Counted from the first letter of the stretch, positions 35,449 through 42,532 are shown. The stretch is 64,000 bases of DNA from Candidatus Omnitrophota bacterium (GCA_041651035.1 JBAZKC010000003.1:69153-133152); one strand, 5' to 3'. Notes: generated from the sequence alone by a model not told the origin. A program made the numbers and translations.

Positions 35449-37143
35449 ATGCTTACAGATATAGAAATAGCCCAAAAGGCAAAAAGAGAACCTATAGAGG
35501 ATATCGCCGGGAAATTAAAGATAAGCAAGAAATATCTTATTCCTTACGGCCGGCATATCGCTAAGATAGATTTAGGTATCTTAGAAGAAATTAAGGCTAA
35601 ACCCCAGGGGAAATATATTCTCGTTACAGCGATCACGCCTACGCCATTAGGAGAAGGTAAGACTGTAACTACTATAGGGCTTTCTATGGCTTTGAATAAA
35701 CTGGGAAAACTGGCTTCCACATGTATCCGGCAGCCTTCTTTAGGCCCTGTATTCGGCATCAAAGGCGGTGCCGCGGGAGGCGGGTATTCCCAGGTTCTGC
35801 CCATGGAAGATTTTAATTTGCATTTTACAGGCGATGTGCATGCCGTAGGTATCGCCCATAATTTGACCGCCGCGTTCCTGGATAACGCTATATTTAAAGG
35901 CAACCGGTTGGATATCTACCCTGATACTATTACCTGGCGCAGGGTCGTGGACGTAAGCGACAGGTTTTTAAGAAATGTGCGCGTTGGTTTAGGCACTAAA
36001 GATGACGGGATCCCCCGCGATACGGGCTTTGATATTACAGTGGCTTCCGAGATCATGGCTATACTTGCTTTAAGCGATAATTTAAAAGACCTGCGCCAGC
36101 GTTTGGGCAGGATTGTCCTGGCTTATACTGTTGACGGCAGGCCAGTCAGTGCCGAGGACATAAAAGTAGCCGGCAGCATGAGCGCGCTTTTAAAAGACGC
36201 TATCAAGCCGAACCTGATACAGACTATTGAAAATACTCCTTGTTTTGTGCACGCGGGGCCTTTTGCTAATATCGCCCACGGGAATAATTCTATATTGGCG
36301 GATAGGATCGCCTTGGCCTTATCCGAGTATGTGGTTACCGAAGCCGGATTCGGGGCTGATTGCGGCGCGGAGAAATTTTTTGATATTAAATGCCGCGCGA
36401 GCGGACTGGTCCCTGACGCGGCGGTAATTGTTTGTTCTATCCGGGCCTTAAAGGCACATAGCGGAAAATTCCGGATAGTTGCCGGTAAACCCCTGGATGA
36501 AGGGCTCATGAAAGAAAACATCCCGGCGATACAGGAAGGCCTGTGTAATTTAGCCAAGCAGATCGAAAATGTTAAGATCTTCGGTGTGCCTGTGGTAGTC
36601 GCGGTCAATGCTTTTAGCACCGATACCGGAAAAGAAATTGAATTCGTTAAGAAGGCGGCCCTGGAATTAGGCGCGGACGGCTGCGAAATAAGTGAAGTCT
36701 GGAAGAAGGGGTCAGAAGGCGGGTTGGATCTAGCCCGGGCAGTAATAAAAGCCGCCGCCTTACCCAAGAAATTTAAATTCCTTTATCCTTTGGATATGGC
36801 TATAAAAGATAAGATCAGGATCATTGCCGCTAAGATATATGGCGCCGCGGATGTAGAATATTCGGATCTGGCTGATGCCAAAATCAAGAAATACACCCAG
36901 ATGGGCTGGGATAAATTGCCTATTTGTATGGCTAAAACGCACCTGTCTCTGTCGCATGACCCCAACTTTAAGGGCCGGCCAAGAGATTTTGTCCTGCCTG
37001 TCAGGGATGTACGCGCCTCTATCGGCGCGGGATTCCTGTATCCGCTTTGCGGGGAAATGAAAACCATGCCGGGCCTGCCCACGCATCCTGTGGGAGAAGG
37101 TATTGACATTGACGGGCAAGGGGAGATCACAGGATTATCATGA
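35449..37143 (+). CDS. fhs: formate--tetrahydrofolate ligase
   Basis: LTDIEIAQ N-terminus, PTPLGEGKTVTTIGL, EAGFGADCGAEKF. 564 aa. Confidence 0.95.
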   Translation: MLTDIEIAQKAKREPIEDIAGKLKISKKYLIPYGRHIAKIDLGILEEIKAKPQGKYILVTAITPTPLGEGKTVTTIGLSMALNKLGKLASTCIRQPSLGPVFGIKGGAAGGGYSQVLPMEDFNLHFTGDVHAVGIAHNLTAAFLDNAIFKGNRLDIYPDTITWRRVVDVSDRFLRNVRVGLGTKDDGIPRDTGFDITVASEIMAILALSDNLKDLRQRLGRIVLAYTVDGRPVSAEDIKVAGSMSALLKDAIKPNLIQTIENTPCFVHAGPFANIAHGNNSILADRIALALSEYVVTEAGFGADCGAEKFFDIKCRASGLVPDAAVIVCSIRALKAHSGKFRIVAGKPLDEGLMKENIPAIQEGLCNLAKQIENVKIFGVPVVVAVNAFSTDTGKEIEFVKKAALELGADGCEISEVWKKGSEGGLDLARAVIKAAALPKKFKFLYPLDMAIKDKIRIIAAKIYGAADVEYSDLADAKIKKYTQMGWDKLPICMAKTHLSLSHDPNFKGRPRDFVLPVRDVRASIGAGFLYPLCGEMKTMPGLPTHPVGEGIDIDGQGEITGLS

Positions 37144-37703
37144 AATATAAAGACGGATCTTTAAAAAAATACCTGGATGACCTGTCAGCAAAGCTTCCCG
37201 CTCCGGGAGGCGGTTCAGCCGCGGCCCTGGGCGCGGCCTTGGGGGCATCTTTGATCAGTATGGTGGTCAATTTTACTTTAGGTAAGCCCCGTTATGCCAA
37301 ATATGAGAAAGAGTTAAAGAATATATTGGAGAAGTCAGAGAAATTAAGAAGCGAGTTTTTAAATTTAGTGGATATGGATGTCGTAGTTTATAAAAGCAAA
37401 AATATGAGAGGCTGCCTGGATATCCCTATTATGGTGGCCCGCCTCTGTTTTGAAGGGATAAAATTATGCCCCGTATTGATAAAAAAGGGGAATGAGGGAT
37501 TAATAAGCGATGTGGCAGTAGCGGCCGCGCTTTTAGAATCAGCCCTGGCTTCGGCGTATTTTAACGTGGAAATAAATTTAAAATGCCTGGGAGATAAAAA
37601 ACTGTCCCGAAGCGTAAGGAAAGAATTAGCGCGGAAGCTGGCCTTGGCCGGTAAAATGAGGCAAAAGACGGAGGAGAGAGTTGGCAAAATTATTAGAGGG
37701 TAA
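37140..37703 (+). CDS. fchA: methenyltetrahydrofolate cyclohydrolase / formiminotransferase-cyclodeaminase-family protein
   Basis: LPAPGGGSAAALGAALGASL cyclodeaminase-domain signature. 187 aa. Confidence 0.7.
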   Translation: MKYKDGSLKKYLDDLSAKLPAPGGGSAAALGAALGASLISMVVNFTLGKPRYAKYEKELKNILEKSEKLRSEFLNLVDMDVVVYKSKNMRGCLDIPIMVARLCFEGIKLCPVLIKKGNEGLISDVAVAAALLESALASAYFNVEINLKCLGDKKLSRSVRKELARKLALAGKMRQKTEERVGKIIRG

Positions 37704-38577
37704 GCCTGTCGCGCGGAATTTACAGGAGAAGATAAGGCTTGAGGTCTTGTCCTTTAAGAAAAAATTAATCCTGGCAAATATCCAGGTGGGCGATAATCCG
37801 GACGCCAGCGCCTACGGGGAATCACAGCGGAGGGCCGCGGAAAAATTAGGCATAGGCTACCGCCTGGAAAGATTAGGCCAGGATACCTCTGAGGAATCTT
37901 TAATAGAGCTTATTCAAAAATTAAGCTTAGATGGTTCTGTAACCGGCATAATTATCCAATTGCCGCTGCCTTCCCAGTTAGATTATAAAAGAATAAGCCA
38001 GTTTATTTCTCCGGAGAAAGATGTGGAAGGCGTGCATCCGGTTAATATAGGCAGGCTGCTGTTAGGAGAATCTGTTCCGCTTGCCAATGAAGGTAAAGGT
38101 GGCCGGGCCGTTGGCGGATTATCTTTGATGCCTTGTACACCCGCGGCAGTTATGGAGCTGTTAAAAGAAACAGGTATAGACCTTCATGGCAAGGAAGCCG
38201 TGGTAGTAGGCCGCAGCCAGATCGTAGGCAAGCCTTTGGCAATGATGTTGCTGGCTAAATCAGCCACAGTTACGATCTGCCATGGCGGGACATCTAAAGC
38301 TAAGAAGTTAGAAGAGCATATAAAGCGTGCTGAAGTTTTAATCGCGGCAGTAGGCAAGCCCGGCTTTATAAAAGGAAAATGGATCAAAAAAGGCGCCGTG
38401 GTGATAGATGTGGGTATAAACTACTTGGGAGATAAAATTGTAGGTGATGTGGAGTTTGAGGCAGCAGAAAAGCGCGCTTCCTGGATCACTCCTGTTCCCG
38501 GAGGAGTAGGGCCCTTGACAGTAACAATGCTGATGCGTAATTTAGTTACGGCGGCAAAATTACAGGGGCTGTCATGA
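37681..38577 (+). CDS. folD: bifunctional 5,10-methylene-THF dehydrogenase/5,10-methenyl-THF cyclohydrolase
   Basis: MAKLLEGKPVA N-terminus, VVVGRSQIVGKP, PVPGGVGP. Confidence 0.9.
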   Translation: MAKLLEGKPVARNLQEKIRLEVLSFKKKLILANIQVGDNPDASAYGESQRRAAEKLGIGYRLERLGQDTSEESLIELIQKLSLDGSVTGIIIQLPLPSQLDYKRISQFISPEKDVEGVHPVNIGRLLLGESVPLANEGKGGRAVGGLSLMPCTPAAVMELLKETGIDLHGKEAVVVGRSQIVGKPLAMMLLAKSATVTICHGGTSKAKKLEEHIKRAEVLIAAVGKPGFIKGKWIKKGAVVIDVGINYLGDKIVGDVEFEAAEKRASWITPVPGGVGPLTVTMLMRNLVTAAKLQGLS

Positions 38578-39443
38578 CTTTTAAAGAGAAGCTGCAATCA
38601 GGGAAATTCTTGGTTACTTCAGAGATCGGCCCGCCCAAAGGAATAGAAACCAAGGCAATATTGGAGAATGCCGAACTTATCCGCGGCAGGGTTGACGCGA
38701 TGAATGTTACTGACCTGCAGAGTTCAATGCTGCGGTTAGGTTCTTTGGCGGTATGCGCGCTCTTAAAACAAAAAGGTTTTGAGCCGATATTACAGGTTAC
38801 CTGCCGTGACAGGAACCGCCTCGCGCTGCAATCCGATATATTGTCAGCGGCATCCCTGGGGATAGGAAACCTGCTTATCTTAACCGGAGACCATCCCGCG
38901 CTAGGAGACCATCCTGAAGCAAAGCCGGTGTTTGACCTGGATTCAGTGCAGCTTTTACAGGCCGCGCGGAAACTTCAGGAAGGTTCTGACATGAATGGCA
39001 ATAAATTAGAGGGGGCTTCGCCAAAATTCTGCATGGGGGCGGTAATTAACCCCGGCGCAGACCCCATAGAGCCGCAGATAATTAAAATGGAAAAGAAGAT
39101 TGCTGCCGGCGCTGAGTTTTTCCAGACGCAGCCGGTCTATGATATAAAGGCCTTTCTAGGTTTCTTAAATAAGATAAAACACTTGAAAACCGTTATATTA
39201 GCGGGGGTGGTTATTCTAAAGTCCGCCGATATGGCAAGGTATATGAATAAAAATATCCCGGGAGTATTCGTGCCCGATAACCTGATAAAAGAAATGGAAG
39301 AGGCCAAAAACAGGACGGAGAAATCAATAGAGATCGCCGCCCGGCTGATAAAAGAGTTAAAAGGTGCCTGTCAGGGTGTCCATATTATGCCCATCGGCCA
39401 GGATAAAATTCTTCCTCGCCTCCTGGATGCCTCCGGACTATAA
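38574..39443 (+). CDS. metF: 5,10-methylenetetrahydrofolate reductase (short acetogen-type MetF)
   Basis: TSEIGPPKG ... ILQVTCRDRNR ... LILTGDHP motifs. 289 aa. Confidence 0.8.
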   Translation: MTFKEKLQSGKFLVTSEIGPPKGIETKAILENAELIRGRVDAMNVTDLQSSMLRLGSLAVCALLKQKGFEPILQVTCRDRNRLALQSDILSAASLGIGNLLILTGDHPALGDHPEAKPVFDLDSVQLLQAARKLQEGSDMNGNKLEGASPKFCMGAVINPGADPIEPQIIKMEKKIAAGAEFFQTQPVYDIKAFLGFLNKIKHLKTVILAGVVILKSADMARYMNKNIPGVFVPDNLIKEMEEAKNRTEKSIEIAARLIKELKGACQGVHIMPIGQDKILPRLLDASGL

Positions 39444-39445
39444 CA

Positions 39446-42400
39446 ATGGCTAAAATACTTATCATTGGTAATTCCGCGGCGGGTTTTTCCACCTGCGAAA
39501 ATCTGCTTAAGGGATCTCCTGCCCAGGAAATAACCGTTATCTCTAAAGAAGAATATCCGGCGTATAAAAGGTACTTGCTTGCCGATTATTTAAGCGGATC
39601 GGTAAAGGATGATGAGCTTTTTTTATGCGGCGCGGATTATTATAAGAAAAATAATATAAATTTCCTGCCCGGATCAGAGGTGGAGAGGCTAGATACCAGG
39701 AAACAGAGGATAATTTTAAAAGGCAATACTAAGATCAATTATGATTATCTGGTTATTGCCTCAGGCTCAGTGATCAAACTTCCTGATATACCCGGTAAGG
39801 CCAAAGACGGAGTAGTGGCTTTTTATACGCTAAAAGACGCAAAGCTGGTTAAAGATAAATTGATGCTCGCTCAGACTGTATGTGTTATAGGACAGGATGA
39901 GGCGGCTTTAAAGATCGCTGAGGCAGCCGCGCTAAGAGGTAAAGAGGTCAAGATCGTCGCTTACGCGGATTTTGTTTATCATGGCCAGAATGACAAAATA
40001 GAGTTAATTTCCGGAGCGCAGCCGCAGGAATTTATAGGAGAAGGAGCTTTGCAGGCGTTGAAATTAAGCAGCGGTAAGGTTATCGGGACTAACCTGGTAT
40101 TAGTAGCCGGAGGCCGCATCCCTTCGACAGGTTTCTTAAAAGAGTCAGATATAAAAACCGATCAGGGTTATATTATAGTAGATGATAATATGCGCACGAA
40201 CCTTAAAAACGTGTTTGCCTGCGGCAGCGTTTGTAAAAAAGAAGGTTCTCCGGCAGCAGAAAAGACCTGGGAAGAATCTGTTCGTGAGGGAACTTTGGCC
40301 AGCCGGCATTTGATCAATCTGCTGGAAGGAAAAAGCGAAGGTGCTATGTCATTAGATGATTTAATTCAGCTTGCCGCTACAGGCAGGCAGGCAATATTAA
40401 AAGCCGCCCAAGATGCCGTAGAGGCGGCGATAAAAGAGAAAGGCGCCAGCCATAACATAGGATTTCCGGAAACTAATTATTATCTGCCTTTGATAAACGC
40501 GTTATTAAAATTAGAGGTCAAAGATTTAGGCGGATGCCTGGAGTCTTTAAAACAGATCAAGGACTTAGGCGATAATAAAGCAGCTCCTGGCAGCCTCAAC
40601 GTCGATTCTTTAGGCGGCCTGCTTAACCAGGGATTAGCAACTCTTCTTTGCGAAGAGATCTTAGCGGCGCTTAAATATTCAAATAAAGAGCATCCGCGGG
40701 AGAATTATGCCGGATTCCTGCCGGATACATTATTAAGGTCGCTGGGTATCCAGCTTGTAGATGGCAGGATAGCCGGTATTGCCGTAATATTAGGCGCGGC
40801 TCCTGATGAAGATTCGGCAGTGCGCCTGATAAGGGATTTCCAAAGCAGGAGCATCGTGAGTATCCTGGCGGGGAATATAGACGGCAGGAGCCTGAAGAAG
40901 CAGTTAGAGAGCAAAAATATAGAAATAGGTTTGGATAATTATATAGTGGCTTTAGGCGAAGATTACCTATCCGCGATTTACGCGGTCAACTGGGCGGTAA
41001 GGGCGCCGTTAATGTATGGCGGGATAAAAAGCGGGCAGTGGGGAGACATTCTCAAATACACCCGGCAGAAAGTCCCCGCGTTTGTCCTGCTCCTGGGGCA
41101 TGTAGACGAGGTTTTAGCGGCTACGGGCCTGGGGGCTTTAGCCATGGGTTTTCCTATTATTACAGATTTAGATATTCCCCAGCTGGGCAAGATCGATACT
41201 ACTTTATTTGAAGCCCTGGTCACGGAAAAGGATTATACGAAACTGGCGGCAAAATGCATAGAGATAAGAGGGCTTAAGGTAAAGATCACCCGCGTTCCCG
41301 TGCCGGTACCTTACGCGGCGGCATTTGAAGGCGAGCGTGTCAGGAAAGAACAATTGCATGCTGAGTTCGGAGGAAAGAGCAGCACGGCTTTTGAATATTT
41401 GACTACTAAAGAAACCGGCGCGGTTGAAGACGGTAAGGTAGAATTGATAGGCCCGGATATAGATTGCCTTGAAAAAGGCAGTAAGTCTATGCCGCTGGCG
41501 ATAGTAGTTGAGGTAGCCGGACGCAAGATGCAAAAGGATTTTGAGCCTATCCTGGAACGCCAGATACACCGTTTTATGAATTACGCTATGGGCCTGATGC
41601 ATATCGGCCAGCGCGATATGAACTGGATCAGGATAAGTAAAGATGCCTTTAATAAGGGCTTCAGGCTAAAACATATCGGCGTGATACTGCACGCCATGTT
41701 ACATCAGGAATACGGCGCTATCGTGGACAAAGTGCAGGTCAGGCTTTATACGCGGCAAGCTGACCTGGAGGGATTATTAGCCGGAGTAAAGAAGGTTTAT
41801 GATGAGCGCGATGAACGCATAAGCGGCATGGTAGATGAGAGCGTGGATACGTTTTATTCGTGTTTATTATGCCAGTCATTTGCCCCTAATCACGTTTGCG
41901 TTGTTACGCCTGAACGCTTAGGATTATGCGGCGCGTATTCCTGGCTGGACGCGAAAGCCTCTTTTGAGATCACTCCTACAGGGCCGAATCAACCCATAAT
42001 AAAAGGCCCTATACGCGATGAGAGGTTGGGCCAGTGGGATAATATCAACGAATTCGTGGCACAGAAGTCCAATAAGACTGTTGAGAGTGTGAGCATGTAT
42101 TCACTAATGGTAGCTCCCCAGTCTTCCTGCGGTTGTTTTGAGTGTATCGTCGCGATAATCCCGGAGGCAAACGGGGTGATGGTTGTGCACCGCGATCATT
42201 CGGGCCAGACGCCATGCGGGATGACCTTTACCGCTTTAGCCGGATCGGTAGGCGGAGGGATCCAGACTCCGGGTTTCCTGGGTGTGGGCAAATTATATAT
42301 ATTAAGCAAGAAATTTATCTTGGCTGAGGGCGGCCTTAAACGCGTTGTCTGGATGCCTAAGGAATTAAAAGAGGCCCTAGGTGATAAATTGAAGAAACGG

Positions 42401-42532
42401 GCGGAAGAGCTGGGAAGCCCGGATCTGATTGATAAGATCGCGGACGAAACCATAGCTACGACAACAGAGGATTTGCTAAGGTTCCTGGAAAAAGTAAGCC
42501 ATCCCGCCCTGGGTATGGAACCGATAATGTAA
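39446..42532 (+). CDS. fusion protein: N-terminal FAD-type pyridine nucleotide-disulfide oxidoreductase-like domain (~300 aa) + full-length bacterial acetyl-CoA synthase (AcsB, CODH/ACS beta subunit, ~728 aa)
   Basis: N-terminus KILIIGNSAAG..YPAYKRYLL (FAD Rossmann, ferredoxin-reductase/NirB-like). C-terminal 728 aa carry AcsB motifs GFPETNYYLPLI, GRKMQKDFEPILERQIHRFMNY, A-cluster cysteines CLLCQSFAPNHVCVVTPERLGLCGAYSWLDAKASFEI and SSCGCFEC, and C-terminus IDKIADETIATT..HPALGMEPIM. Confidence 0.8.
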   Translation: MAKILIIGNSAAGFSTCENLLKGSPAQEITVISKEEYPAYKRYLLADYLSGSVKDDELFLCGADYYKKNNINFLPGSEVERLDTRKQRIILKGNTKINYDYLVIASGSVIKLPDIPGKAKDGVVAFYTLKDAKLVKDKLMLAQTVCVIGQDEAALKIAEAAALRGKEVKIVAYADFVYHGQNDKIELISGAQPQEFIGEGALQALKLSSGKVIGTNLVLVAGGRIPSTGFLKESDIKTDQGYIIVDDNMRTNLKNVFACGSVCKKEGSPAAEKTWEESVREGTLASRHLINLLEGKSEGAMSLDDLIQLAATGRQAILKAAQDAVEAAIKEKGASHNIGFPETNYYLPLINALLKLEVKDLGGCLESLKQIKDLGDNKAAPGSLNVDSLGGLLNQGLATLLCEEILAALKYSNKEHPRENYAGFLPDTLLRSLGIQLVDGRIAGIAVILGAAPDEDSAVRLIRDFQSRSIVSILAGNIDGRSLKKQLESKNIEIGLDNYIVALGEDYLSAIYAVNWAVRAPLMYGGIKSGQWGDILKYTRQKVPAFVLLLGHVDEVLAATGLGALAMGFPIITDLDIPQLGKIDTTLFEALVTEKDYTKLAAKCIEIRGLKVKITRVPVPVPYAAAFEGERVRKEQLHAEFGGKSSTAFEYLTTKETGAVEDGKVELIGPDIDCLEKGSKSMPLAIVVEVAGRKMQKDFEPILERQIHRFMNYAMGLMHIGQRDMNWIRISKDAFNKGFRLKHIGVILHAMLHQEYGAIVDKVQVRLYTRQADLEGLLAGVKKVYDERDERISGMVDESVDTFYSCLLCQSFAPNHVCVVTPERLGLCGAYSWLDAKASFEITPTGPNQPIIKGPIRDERLGQWDNINEFVAQKSNKTVESVSMYSLMVAPQSSCGCFECIVAIIPEANGVMVVHRDHSGQTPCGMTFTALAGSVGGGIQTPGFLGVGKLYILSKKFILAEGGLKRVVWMPKELKEALGDKLKKRAEELGSPDLIDKIADETIATTTEDLLRFLEKVSHPALGMEPIM

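Follow-up and report, generated by a model that had tools for sequence, protein, structure and literature searches.

Acetyl-CoA synthase fused to a flavoprotein remnant in Omnitrophota: probable reductive evolution from a cooS-cooF-FNOR-acsB operon

In a 64,000-nt stretch of DNA from Candidatus Omnitrophota bacterium (GCA_041651035.1, JBAZKC010000003.1:69153-133152; hereafter, the window), a single gene at positions 39446-42532 encodes a flavoprotein-fold domain joined to a bacterial acetyl-CoA synthase (ACS), AcsB. This gene probably arose by reductive evolution of a cooS-cooF-FNOR-acsB operon, and its product is probably an ACS independent of carbon monoxide dehydrogenase (CODH), in which a remnant of the former FNOR protein is retained as an accessory domain. 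FNOR denotes the FAD-dependent NAD(P) oxidoreductase encoded in cooS-cooF-FNOR clusters; its association with CODH is recognised (Whitham 2015 and Geelhoed 2016, in PMC6344411; PMC11338639), and a 2019 review knew of no biochemical work on it (PMC6344411).

The two moieties of the fusion gene

The open reading frame (ORF) begins with ATG and comprises 1028 codons with zero internal stops in translation. Residues 301-1028 correspond to a complete AcsB: the Pfam families CODH_A_N, CdhC and ACS_CODH_B_C were found at residues 323-411, 619-772 and 785-1028, respectively, and the NCBIfam profile CODH_ACS_al_bet (NF040764) matched residues 312-1028 with 999.6 bits (cut-off 800), covering profile positions 2-705 of 705. 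Alignments to solved structures ran end to end, with 751 bits for C. autoethanogenum 6YTT (chain residues 3-708) and 674 bits for Moorella 1OAO; the N-terminal numbering of the structure alignment is offset, query residue 21 corresponding to chain residue 36. The motif GFPETNYYLPLI is located at residues 339-350, CLLCQSFAPNHVCVVTPERLGLC at 806-828 and SCGCFEC at 894-900, and the A-cluster ligands (Table 1) are invariant across 14 relatives (alignment A1). With every A-cluster ligand and all three domains present, the AcsB moiety is intact and retains its predicted active site. The same three-domain architecture and A-cluster ligands are found in the bacterial AcsB proteins of Moorella thermoacetica (1OAO) and C. 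autoethanogenum (6YTT) and in the monomeric ACS of Carboxydothermus hydrogenoformans (1RU3), from which the window protein differs by an additional 300-aa N-terminal flavoprotein-fold domain and by the lack of an adjacent CODH gene.

Residues 1-300 adopt a different, confidently predicted fold. The Pfam family Pyr_redox_2 was matched at residues 3-269 (E 1.3e-38), and an AlphaFold2 (AF2) model of residues 1-300 reached a predicted local distance difference test (pLDDT) of 96.3 and a predicted template modelling score (pTM) of 0.92. Foldseek searches with the same residues recovered ferredoxin, rubredoxin and CoA-disulfide reductases as well as AorC, with TM-scores normalised to the query (TMq) of 0.85-0.90; the scores normalised to the target (TMt) were lower because the targets carry an extra C-terminal domain. 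The best sequence and structure matches were NADH:rubredoxin/ferredoxin reductases and FAD subunits of multi-subunit oxidoreductases (P. furiosus 1XHC, C. acetobutylicum 3KLJ, TodA 3EF6/4EMI, putidaredoxin reductase 1Q1R, AorC 8C0Z_E and PadH), all of which combine GxGxxG in the NAD domain with an Asp in the “GD” motif for FAD and with a C-terminal domain, whereas the window domain is without all three. After the stand-alone remnants described below, the closest relatives of the domain are enzymes of 419-450 aa with additional Pyr_redox (PF00070) and Rubredoxin_C (PF18267) domains. These results agree with the original prediction, made from the sequence alone, which had described a single ORF, an FAD-type pyridine-nucleotide-disulfide oxidoreductase fold with a degenerate second Rossmann motif in residues 1-300, an AcsB with its motifs and A-cluster cysteines from residue ~301 onwards, and a window without cooS/acsA, acsCD, acsE or cooC; the profile searches that it had suggested recovered both halves, and the missing genes are considered below.

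The FNOR proteins of cooS-cooF-FNOR clusters (COG1251) share with the window domain the fold, the GNSAAG motif and the position directly upstream of acsB, but differ from it in having the NAD(P)H motif, the GD Asp and Rubredoxin_C; the window domain, moreover, has no CooS or CooF nearby and forms one polypeptide with AcsB. In place of the NAD(P)H motif GGGLIG of intact FNORs, the remnant family has G[QEDN]xxx[CSA] and the window VCVIGQDEAAL; the acidic ribose ligand at the end of the next strand is lost (VVEL in FNOR, VKIIS in the remnant family and VKIVA in the window), and the former NAD(P)H subdomain is shorter by ~14 residues than in intact FNORs. At the GD position, 6 of 6 intact FNORs have Asp (AAGD) versus ACG[SAN] in the remnant family, with Ser in 86 of 115 remnants (80 of 107 stand-alone and 6 of 8 fused) and mainly Ala, Asn, Thr or Gly in the rest. 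Rubredoxin_C (~120 aa) is missing altogether, the remnant ending at about residue 295, where AcsB begins. Judged by the combined loss of the NAD(P)H motif, the ribose acid, the GD Asp and Rubredoxin_C, the remnant is predicted to be unable to act as an NAD(P)H-driven reductase. The GNSAAG motif was also considered as a sign of decay and was dropped, because intact FNORs carry the identical form; the remnant family shows little or no variation in it and has likewise kept Glu35, the residue that closes beta-2.

Two cysteines of the remnant were noted in addition. Cys146 (39881-39883, in “TVC”) is kept in 90 of 107 split, 8 of 8 fused and 10 of 10 truncated forms, and in 104 of 107 Cys259 (40220-40222) occupies the position ahead of the former GD motif where Ala is usual; neither residue is part of an evident metal-binding pattern.

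Table 1. Features of the fusion gene and of the genes directly upstream, in window coordinates
Feature	Position	Strand	Basis
FNOR remnant::AcsB fusion gene, 1028 aa + stop	39446..42532	+	single ORF
FNOR-derived flavoprotein fold, residues 1-300, two dinucleotide-binding domains, without C-terminal domain	39446..40345	+	Pfam, AF2, Foldseek
GNSAAG, residues 8-13, FNOR-specific variant (G-N-S-x-x-G/A) of the FAD dinucleotide-binding motif	39467..39484	+	alignment
Former NAD(P)H-binding subdomain, residues ~112-245, sole part kept in truncated fusions	39779..40180	+	alignment
Dead NAD(P)H GxGxxG site, VCVIGQDEAAL, residues 145-155	39878..39910	+	alignment with intact FNORs
ACGSV, residues 258-262, FAD GD motif with Asp replaced by Ser	40217..40231	+	alignment
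Junction of the two moieties, with the ancestral acsB start codon at Met301 (40346-40348) and an SD-like GAAGGTG 4 nt before it	40325..40348	+	alignment with split relatives
Complete bacterial AcsB, residues 301-1028, three domains	40346..42529	+	Pfam, NCBIfam, structure alignments
[4Fe-4S] cubane ligands of the A-cluster, Cys806, 809, 818 and 828 (AcsB 506, 509, 518 and 528)	41861..41929	+	motif check, alignment
Ni-Ni site, Cys895-Gly896-Cys897 (AcsB 595-597)	42125..42145	+	motif check, alignment
fhs, fchA, folD, metF (methyl-branch genes, directly upstream)	35449..39443	+	annotation
SD, Shine-Dalgarno.

Gene order at the acsB locus of relatives

Gene order in relatives indicates where the N-terminal domain came from. 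GTDB species representatives were scanned with an AcsB alignment, and the 80 loci obtained were annotated against references; the metagenome-assembled genome (MAG) of the window is outside this set, with a best match of 75%. In state A, the order is cooS-cooF-FNOR(420-450 aa)-acsB; it was found at ~10 Omnitrophota loci and in Elusimicrobia, Endomicrobia, Spirochaetota and one Clostridia-labelled MAG, and an additional locus (L087) was found separately on a 1.19-Mb Omnitrophota contig. The Omnitrophota loci of this state (L005, L023-L025, L027, L028, L030, L033 and L087) encode FNORs of 419-450 aa. In state B (11 loci), metF is followed by a remnant of 286-302 aa and by acsB; state C, the full fusion, is represented by the window and L009, and state D, the truncated fusion, by 11-12 loci. 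The flanks are constant across the states, with trmD-rplS-rnhB-fhs-fchA-folD-metF before and the gene for a tetratricopeptide repeat (TPR) protein followed by polA-coaE-rho after. At the state-A locus L005, in an Omnitrophota MAG, which encodes P0233, the best match among the 419-450-aa relatives, the complete series reads tgt-trmD-rplS-rnhB-fhs-fchA-folD-metF-cooC-cooS-cooF-FNOR(419 aa)-acsB(727 aa)-TPR-polA-coaE-rho.

Because the cooS-cooF-FNOR-acsB order is also present in the Elusimicrobia, Endomicrobia, Spirochaetota and Clostridia-labelled MAGs, it appears to be ancestral. The window N-domain is 35-38% identical to the Omnitrophota state-A FNORs, 24-32% to FNORs of other phyla and 33% to a non-CODH paralogue. 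A neighbour-joining tree of AcsB unites states B, C and D in a single clade, with the Omnitrophota of state A as its sister group, and the separate positions of the two full fusions suggest that fusion occurred more than once. The flavoprotein domain is therefore better regarded as an FNOR remnant in situ than as a newly recruited reductase, since cooS-cooF-FNOR precedes acsB in the ancestral form of the locus.

The same gene order bears on a second explanation, in which the module would be a partner of MetF, that is, an electron-transfer subunit of methylenetetrahydrofolate reductase replacing MetV or Hdr, and its fusion to AcsB would be incidental. The metF stop lies only 2 nt before the fusion ATG, and the operon is without a metV-like gene, as this role would lead one to expect; however, cooC-cooS-cooF sit between metF and FNOR in the ancestral order, and adjacency to metF is thus a by-product of deletion. 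All fusions found are to AcsB and 0 to MetF, and the NAD(P)H site is dead. We consider a MetF-partner role very improbable and rejected it on ancestral gene order.

The CODH-bearing arrangement itself was observed at L005, L023-L025, L027, L030, L033, L034, L037, L053, L064, L085 and L087, and the position of FNOR directly before acsB in several phyla suggests that CODH/ACS is wired to NAD(P)H via CooF and FNOR. The CooS of these loci is very highly conserved: for L023:6329-8233 as query, the best 120 clusters (P0241-P0360) are all Omnitrophota CooS with 85-100% identity, whereas the AcsB beside that CooS is only 60-78% identical across comparable genomes. Among these 120 best matches, none is on a contig equal in length to a known CODH-less contig, which is a weak negative. 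Loss of fhs was also observed: it is missing in every truncated-fusion locus with a covered upstream flank and in several split loci, which read rnhB-fchA-folD-metF-acsB (L004, L007, L010-L012 and L015-L021), and it is kept in the window and in the CODH-bearing loci. The methyl branch seems to be eroding along with the carbonyl branch.

The forms of the remnant-acsB pair were further compared among the best 120 AcsB matches, which are 56-100% identical to the window protein and labelled Omnitrophota where named (with one Patescibacteria group). Of canonical length (~727 aa) are 47 of them, 8 are full fusions of 1014-1030 aa, 62 measure ~845-870 aa and 3 carry inteins. The truncated fusion (~850 aa) is thus the commonest form. 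It starts with “MxNLPQIPGxxKKGV”, equivalent to window residue ~112, and keeps only the middle, former NAD-binding subdomain; metF ends 19 nt upstream of it, so no coding sequence is hidden there. The split form is exemplified by P0033, a canonical-length AcsB whose gene is separated from metF by a stand-alone gene for a 287-aa Pyr_redox_2 protein; in this type of pair, the end of the remnant ORF, stop codon included, and the start of acsB share 20 nt, read in different frames. With residues 1-300 as query, at least 107 clusters of stand-alone ~300-aa proteins with 41-61% identity were obtained, many of them sharing a contig with a 727-aa AcsB, and an exhaustive HMMER search gave ~55 representative remnant clusters at the 50% identity level. 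In Omnitrophota, the remnant module is an ordinary neighbour of acsB and usually a separate gene. The claim of an unrecognised ACS arrangement consequently stands in part: the fusion is real, but its N-terminal module is an ordinary acsB neighbour in the phylum, an outcome that the original prediction had itself named as counting against it.

The overlap of the split genes invites the suspicion that a sequencing or assembly indel merged an adjacent remnant and acsB in this contig, since a 1-nt error would fuse two ORFs that overlap by 20 nt out of frame, and P0001, the cluster that is 100% identical to the window protein, is a singleton from one contig. Such an artefact is scarcely credible in view of seven further full-fusion clusters (1014-1030 aa, 58-68% identical) that share the Pfam architecture and come from independent assemblies and sources, including L009, a full fusion in a GTDB species representative. 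The same fusion in independent assemblies and at L009 shows that the window fusion is not a one-off; in addition, the truncated fusion is the majority form, and a long homopolymer is absent from the junction.

As Met301 coincides with the old acsB start, a small frame change merged two translationally coupled genes. The start Met is kept in 8 of 13 fused genes (L004, L007, L009 and L011-L015), together with a GGAG sequence 4-15 nt upstream, and the K-G-E that precedes the kept Met is encoded by AAR GGA GAR, with Gly always GGA, against a background of 6.7% of codons. The SD-like sequence of the window is weaker than the GGAG of the other fused genes. Given the kept Met and SD-like motif, the fusion genes may also give rise to a canonical-length AcsB through internal initiation. 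A subclade consisting of L017 and L019-L021 has no SD-like motif, and L019-L021 are also without the Met; in these three loci, AcsB would exist only as the fusion.

In the window, the upstream run comprises trmD, rplS, rnhB, UPF0102, fhs, fchA, folD and metF, with the fusion gene as its last member, followed downstream by the genes for a TPR protein, polA, glgA, coaE, rho, prfA, prmC and aroA. References for CooS, CooF, CooC and FNOR were taken from L005 and those for AcsC, RACo, AcsD and AcsE from L034 (Pfam-confirmed). In six-frame ORFs of at least 70 aa across the whole window, phmmer (E <= 1e-3) gave 0 matches to CooS, CooF, CooC, AcsC, AcsD, AcsE and RACo, and its sole match was that of the FNOR reference to the fusion gene itself. 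On the 199,744-bp source contig, no CODH/ACS partner genes were found within 10 kb beyond each window end, only lipopolysaccharide, tryptophan, ArgS, RecJ and AddAB housekeeping genes. No large CODH-less contigs were among the 600 stretches listed in a metagenome scan with an AcsC alignment.

Several observations concern individual relatives. P0039, P0114 and P0115 are Omnitrophota-like AcsB proteins of 1256-1389 aa with the intein domains PF14528 and PF14890, and P0039 shares its contig with the stand-alone FNOR remnant P0145. The ENA assembly ERZ27247363 contains both the window fusion (k141_2957867) and a split remnant and acsB (L003, k141_3108270), the latter from a second Omnitrophota population; contig k141_3108270 also occurs as a 579-kb JGI contig. 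L008, L011, L022 and L056 are titled “bacterium”, “uncultured Planctomycetales” or “Deltaproteobacteria”, yet have Omnitrophota-type synteny and the remnant-acsB pair, and their taxonomic labels are therefore probably wrong or outdated.

Selection on the remnant and remodelling of AcsB

In the truncated class, two pairs with unsaturated synonymous divergence (dS) gave ratios of non-synonymous to synonymous change (dN/dS) of 0.07 and 0.14 for the extension, compared with 0.066 and 0.039 for AcsB in the same two pairs. For the full-length remnant, all pairs had a dS above 1.3 and were saturated; their dN was ~2.5-3.3 times that of AcsB or MetF, and the remnant is 46-52% identical to its relatives versus 60-80% for the neighbouring genes. 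Across an alignment of 115 remnant sequences, 47 positions are at least 90% conserved, including charged residues that are new relative to FNOR. Among them, K120, K166, K169, E186, E195, E199, K206 and K211 are invariant in states B, C and D and not conserved in FNOR, which points to a newly conserved surface on the middle subdomain. The low dN/dS, the new invariant Lys and Glu residues and the AF2 pLDDT of 96 argue that the remnant is functional rather than junk, and, as measured in the truncated class, it is under purifying selection.

The faster change of the full-length remnant, together with the old acsB Met and SD-like motif in many fusions, would suit a functionless vestige that is kept only for the promoter-proximal translation signals of acsB. 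We regard this as improbable, because it accords neither with the dN/dS values of the truncated class nor with the 47 conserved positions and their charged residues absent from FNOR, nor with L019-L021, where the internal translation signals are lost.

AcsB has changed in a localised manner. Clade-specific sites were defined as positions with at least 85% conservation in each of two groups, state A and states B-D, at which the groups differ. Relative to CODH-associated AcsB relatives, the window clade has 20 such substitutions, and all 20 map to the CODH-docking domain at the AcsB N-terminus (residues 6-283), with 0 in residues 301-728 (~6e-9 under uniformity). Conservation in the CODH-less group is ~0.1 lower in the CODH-docking domain only. 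This pattern suggests that the docking domain was remodelled after CODH loss. Considered together, purifying selection on the remnant and a remodelled docking domain indicate that the remnant is most likely an accessory domain that does not act on NAD(P)H.

The original prediction had offered, as one possible function, direct supply or activation of electrons for the A-cluster. On this reading, an active flavoprotein would reductively activate Ni, in place of electrons from CODH or ferredoxin. Near-invariance of GNSAAG, Glu35, ASG and Gly260 in the ~300-aa forms, as in intact FNORs, would be expected of an active reductase, as would the very high confidence of the predicted fold; covalent fusion implies nearness to AcsB, and the family-specific Lys-rich surface could dock an acidic ferredoxin. 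Against this, the pyridine-nucleotide site is gone, the GD Asp (FAD ribitol binding) is gone across the family and the partner-docking C-terminal domain is gone, while 62 of 120 relatives have deleted both halves of the FAD domain, with the remainder under strong purifying selection. Flavin potentials also lie far above the Ni2+/Ni+ couple. Since state D is without either half of the FAD domain, flavin chemistry cannot be what all forms have in common as their function, and electron supply to the A-cluster by the N-terminal module is accordingly disfavoured and, in our judgement, unlikely.

Proposed history, function and significance

Gene order and sequence comparison show that the ancestor of the window's Omnitrophota clade carried metF-(cooC)-cooS-cooF-FNOR-acsB-TPR-polA and that cooC, cooS and cooF are absent from the locus in this clade. 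FNOR shrank to ~300 aa, losing the NAD(P)H site, the GD Asp and the C-terminal domain that docked its partner (CooF), and the remnant kept its place just before acsB, its stop codon overlapping the start of that gene. In the window lineage, both ORFs were joined at the old acsB start codon by a small frame change.

The fusion protein is expected to convert acetyl-CoA reversibly into CoA, free CO and a methyl group; the last would be carried by a corrinoid Fe-S protein whose gene would lie elsewhere in the genome, and is presumably tied to the adjacent fhs-fchA-folD-metF genes. In one direction, CO and a formate-derived methyl group would yield acetyl-CoA, as proposed for Velamenicoccus-type Omnitrophota; in the other, cleavage of acetyl-CoA would supply C1 units, as in Dehalococcoides. 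The FNOR-derived domain would no longer oxidise NAD(P)H and would be kept as a non-catalytic, at most flavin-only, accessory domain in physical association with AcsB. Most likely, it would either stabilise or cover the face of the AcsB N-terminal domain that once docked on CODH or add a charged surface for docking that was not there before. Tentatively, the remnant may have gone further and been neofunctionalised as a dedicated subunit or domain of the CODH-free ACS, either capping the former CODH face and the end of the CO tunnel or docking ferredoxin or the corrinoid protein through its Lys/Glu surface. If this were the case, Omnitrophota would run a distinct two-part ACS, composed of remnant and AcsB, that takes up or releases free CO, and the repeated fusions would mark an obligate physical complex.

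Several points weigh against the history and function preferred here, reductive evolution to a CODH-independent ACS with an accessory domain. The FAD-side residues G8, N9, S10, G13, E35, A105, G107 and G260 are nearly invariant in the ~300-aa forms, including the window; flavin or ADP binding may therefore survive in the split and full-fusion forms, and flavin may still be bound in the full-length forms, the window among them, with a possible redox role. The full-length AF2 model has a pTM of 0.52 and a pLDDT below 50 in the C-terminal A-cluster domain, and the contact between remnant and AcsB is not readable from it. The AcsB tree carries no support values, and the analysis of clade-specific sites compares two clades and thus amounts to a single tree branch. 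Finally, the absence of CODH partners holds for the ~84 kb covered, all on a single contig.

A CODH-independent role for the ACS, raised in the original prediction, is plausible, yet it has already been proposed for the phylum. According to PMC10066038, 24 Omnitrophota species without AcsA and CooS/F keep AcsB-E, and use of free CO via AcsB-E was proposed for them (Seymour et al. 2023). The partial Wood-Ljungdahl pathway of Velamenicoccus type described there resembles the window in phylum, in its methyl-branch genes and in an AcsB without AcsA or CooS/F, and the accessible parts of the article and its supplement contain no mention of an FNOR remnant or of an AcsB fusion. A 2026 bioRxiv preprint on Omnitrophota adds nothing on the Wood-Ljungdahl pathway. 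To our knowledge, no flavoprotein-derived extension occurs on the AcsB of Dehalococcoides mccartyi. In that organism, AcsB is likewise present without CODH, and the ACS was proposed to cleave acetyl-CoA for C1 units with release of CO (Zhuang et al. 2014, in PMC9324843); according to PMC9324843, the methyl branch of D. mccartyi is truncated (Fhs, FolD), in contrast to the window, where metF lies directly upstream. Published work thus already covers both the FNOR module and, in Omnitrophota, AcsB without CODH. In the papers searched, we found no description of the cooS-cooF-FNOR-acsB operon, of a conserved FNOR relic, of recurrent AcsB fusion or of remodelling of the AcsB docking domain.

The relevance of these findings begins with annotation: the ~300-aa remnants are now annotated as “nitrite reductase large subunit” or “FAD-dependent oxidoreductase” even though the nucleotide site is absent, and the ~850-aa and ~1028-aa fusions as plain AcsB. 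In several phyla, the cooS-cooF-FNOR-acsB operon would tie CODH/ACS to a module on the NAD(P)H side, a link that has been overlooked. Beyond this, the locus offers a natural dissection of CODH/ACS, as a single syntenic locus displays the stepwise fate of ACS after removal of CODH: its catalytic domains are left as they were, the domain that docked CODH undergoes remodelling, and a subunit once used for electron transfer is retained in altered form and becomes fused to ACS repeatedly. The fusion protein is a concrete candidate for studying how an ACS without CODH is stabilised, CO-gated and reductively activated, a question that arises equally in Dehalococcoides and other carriers of CODH-less ACS.

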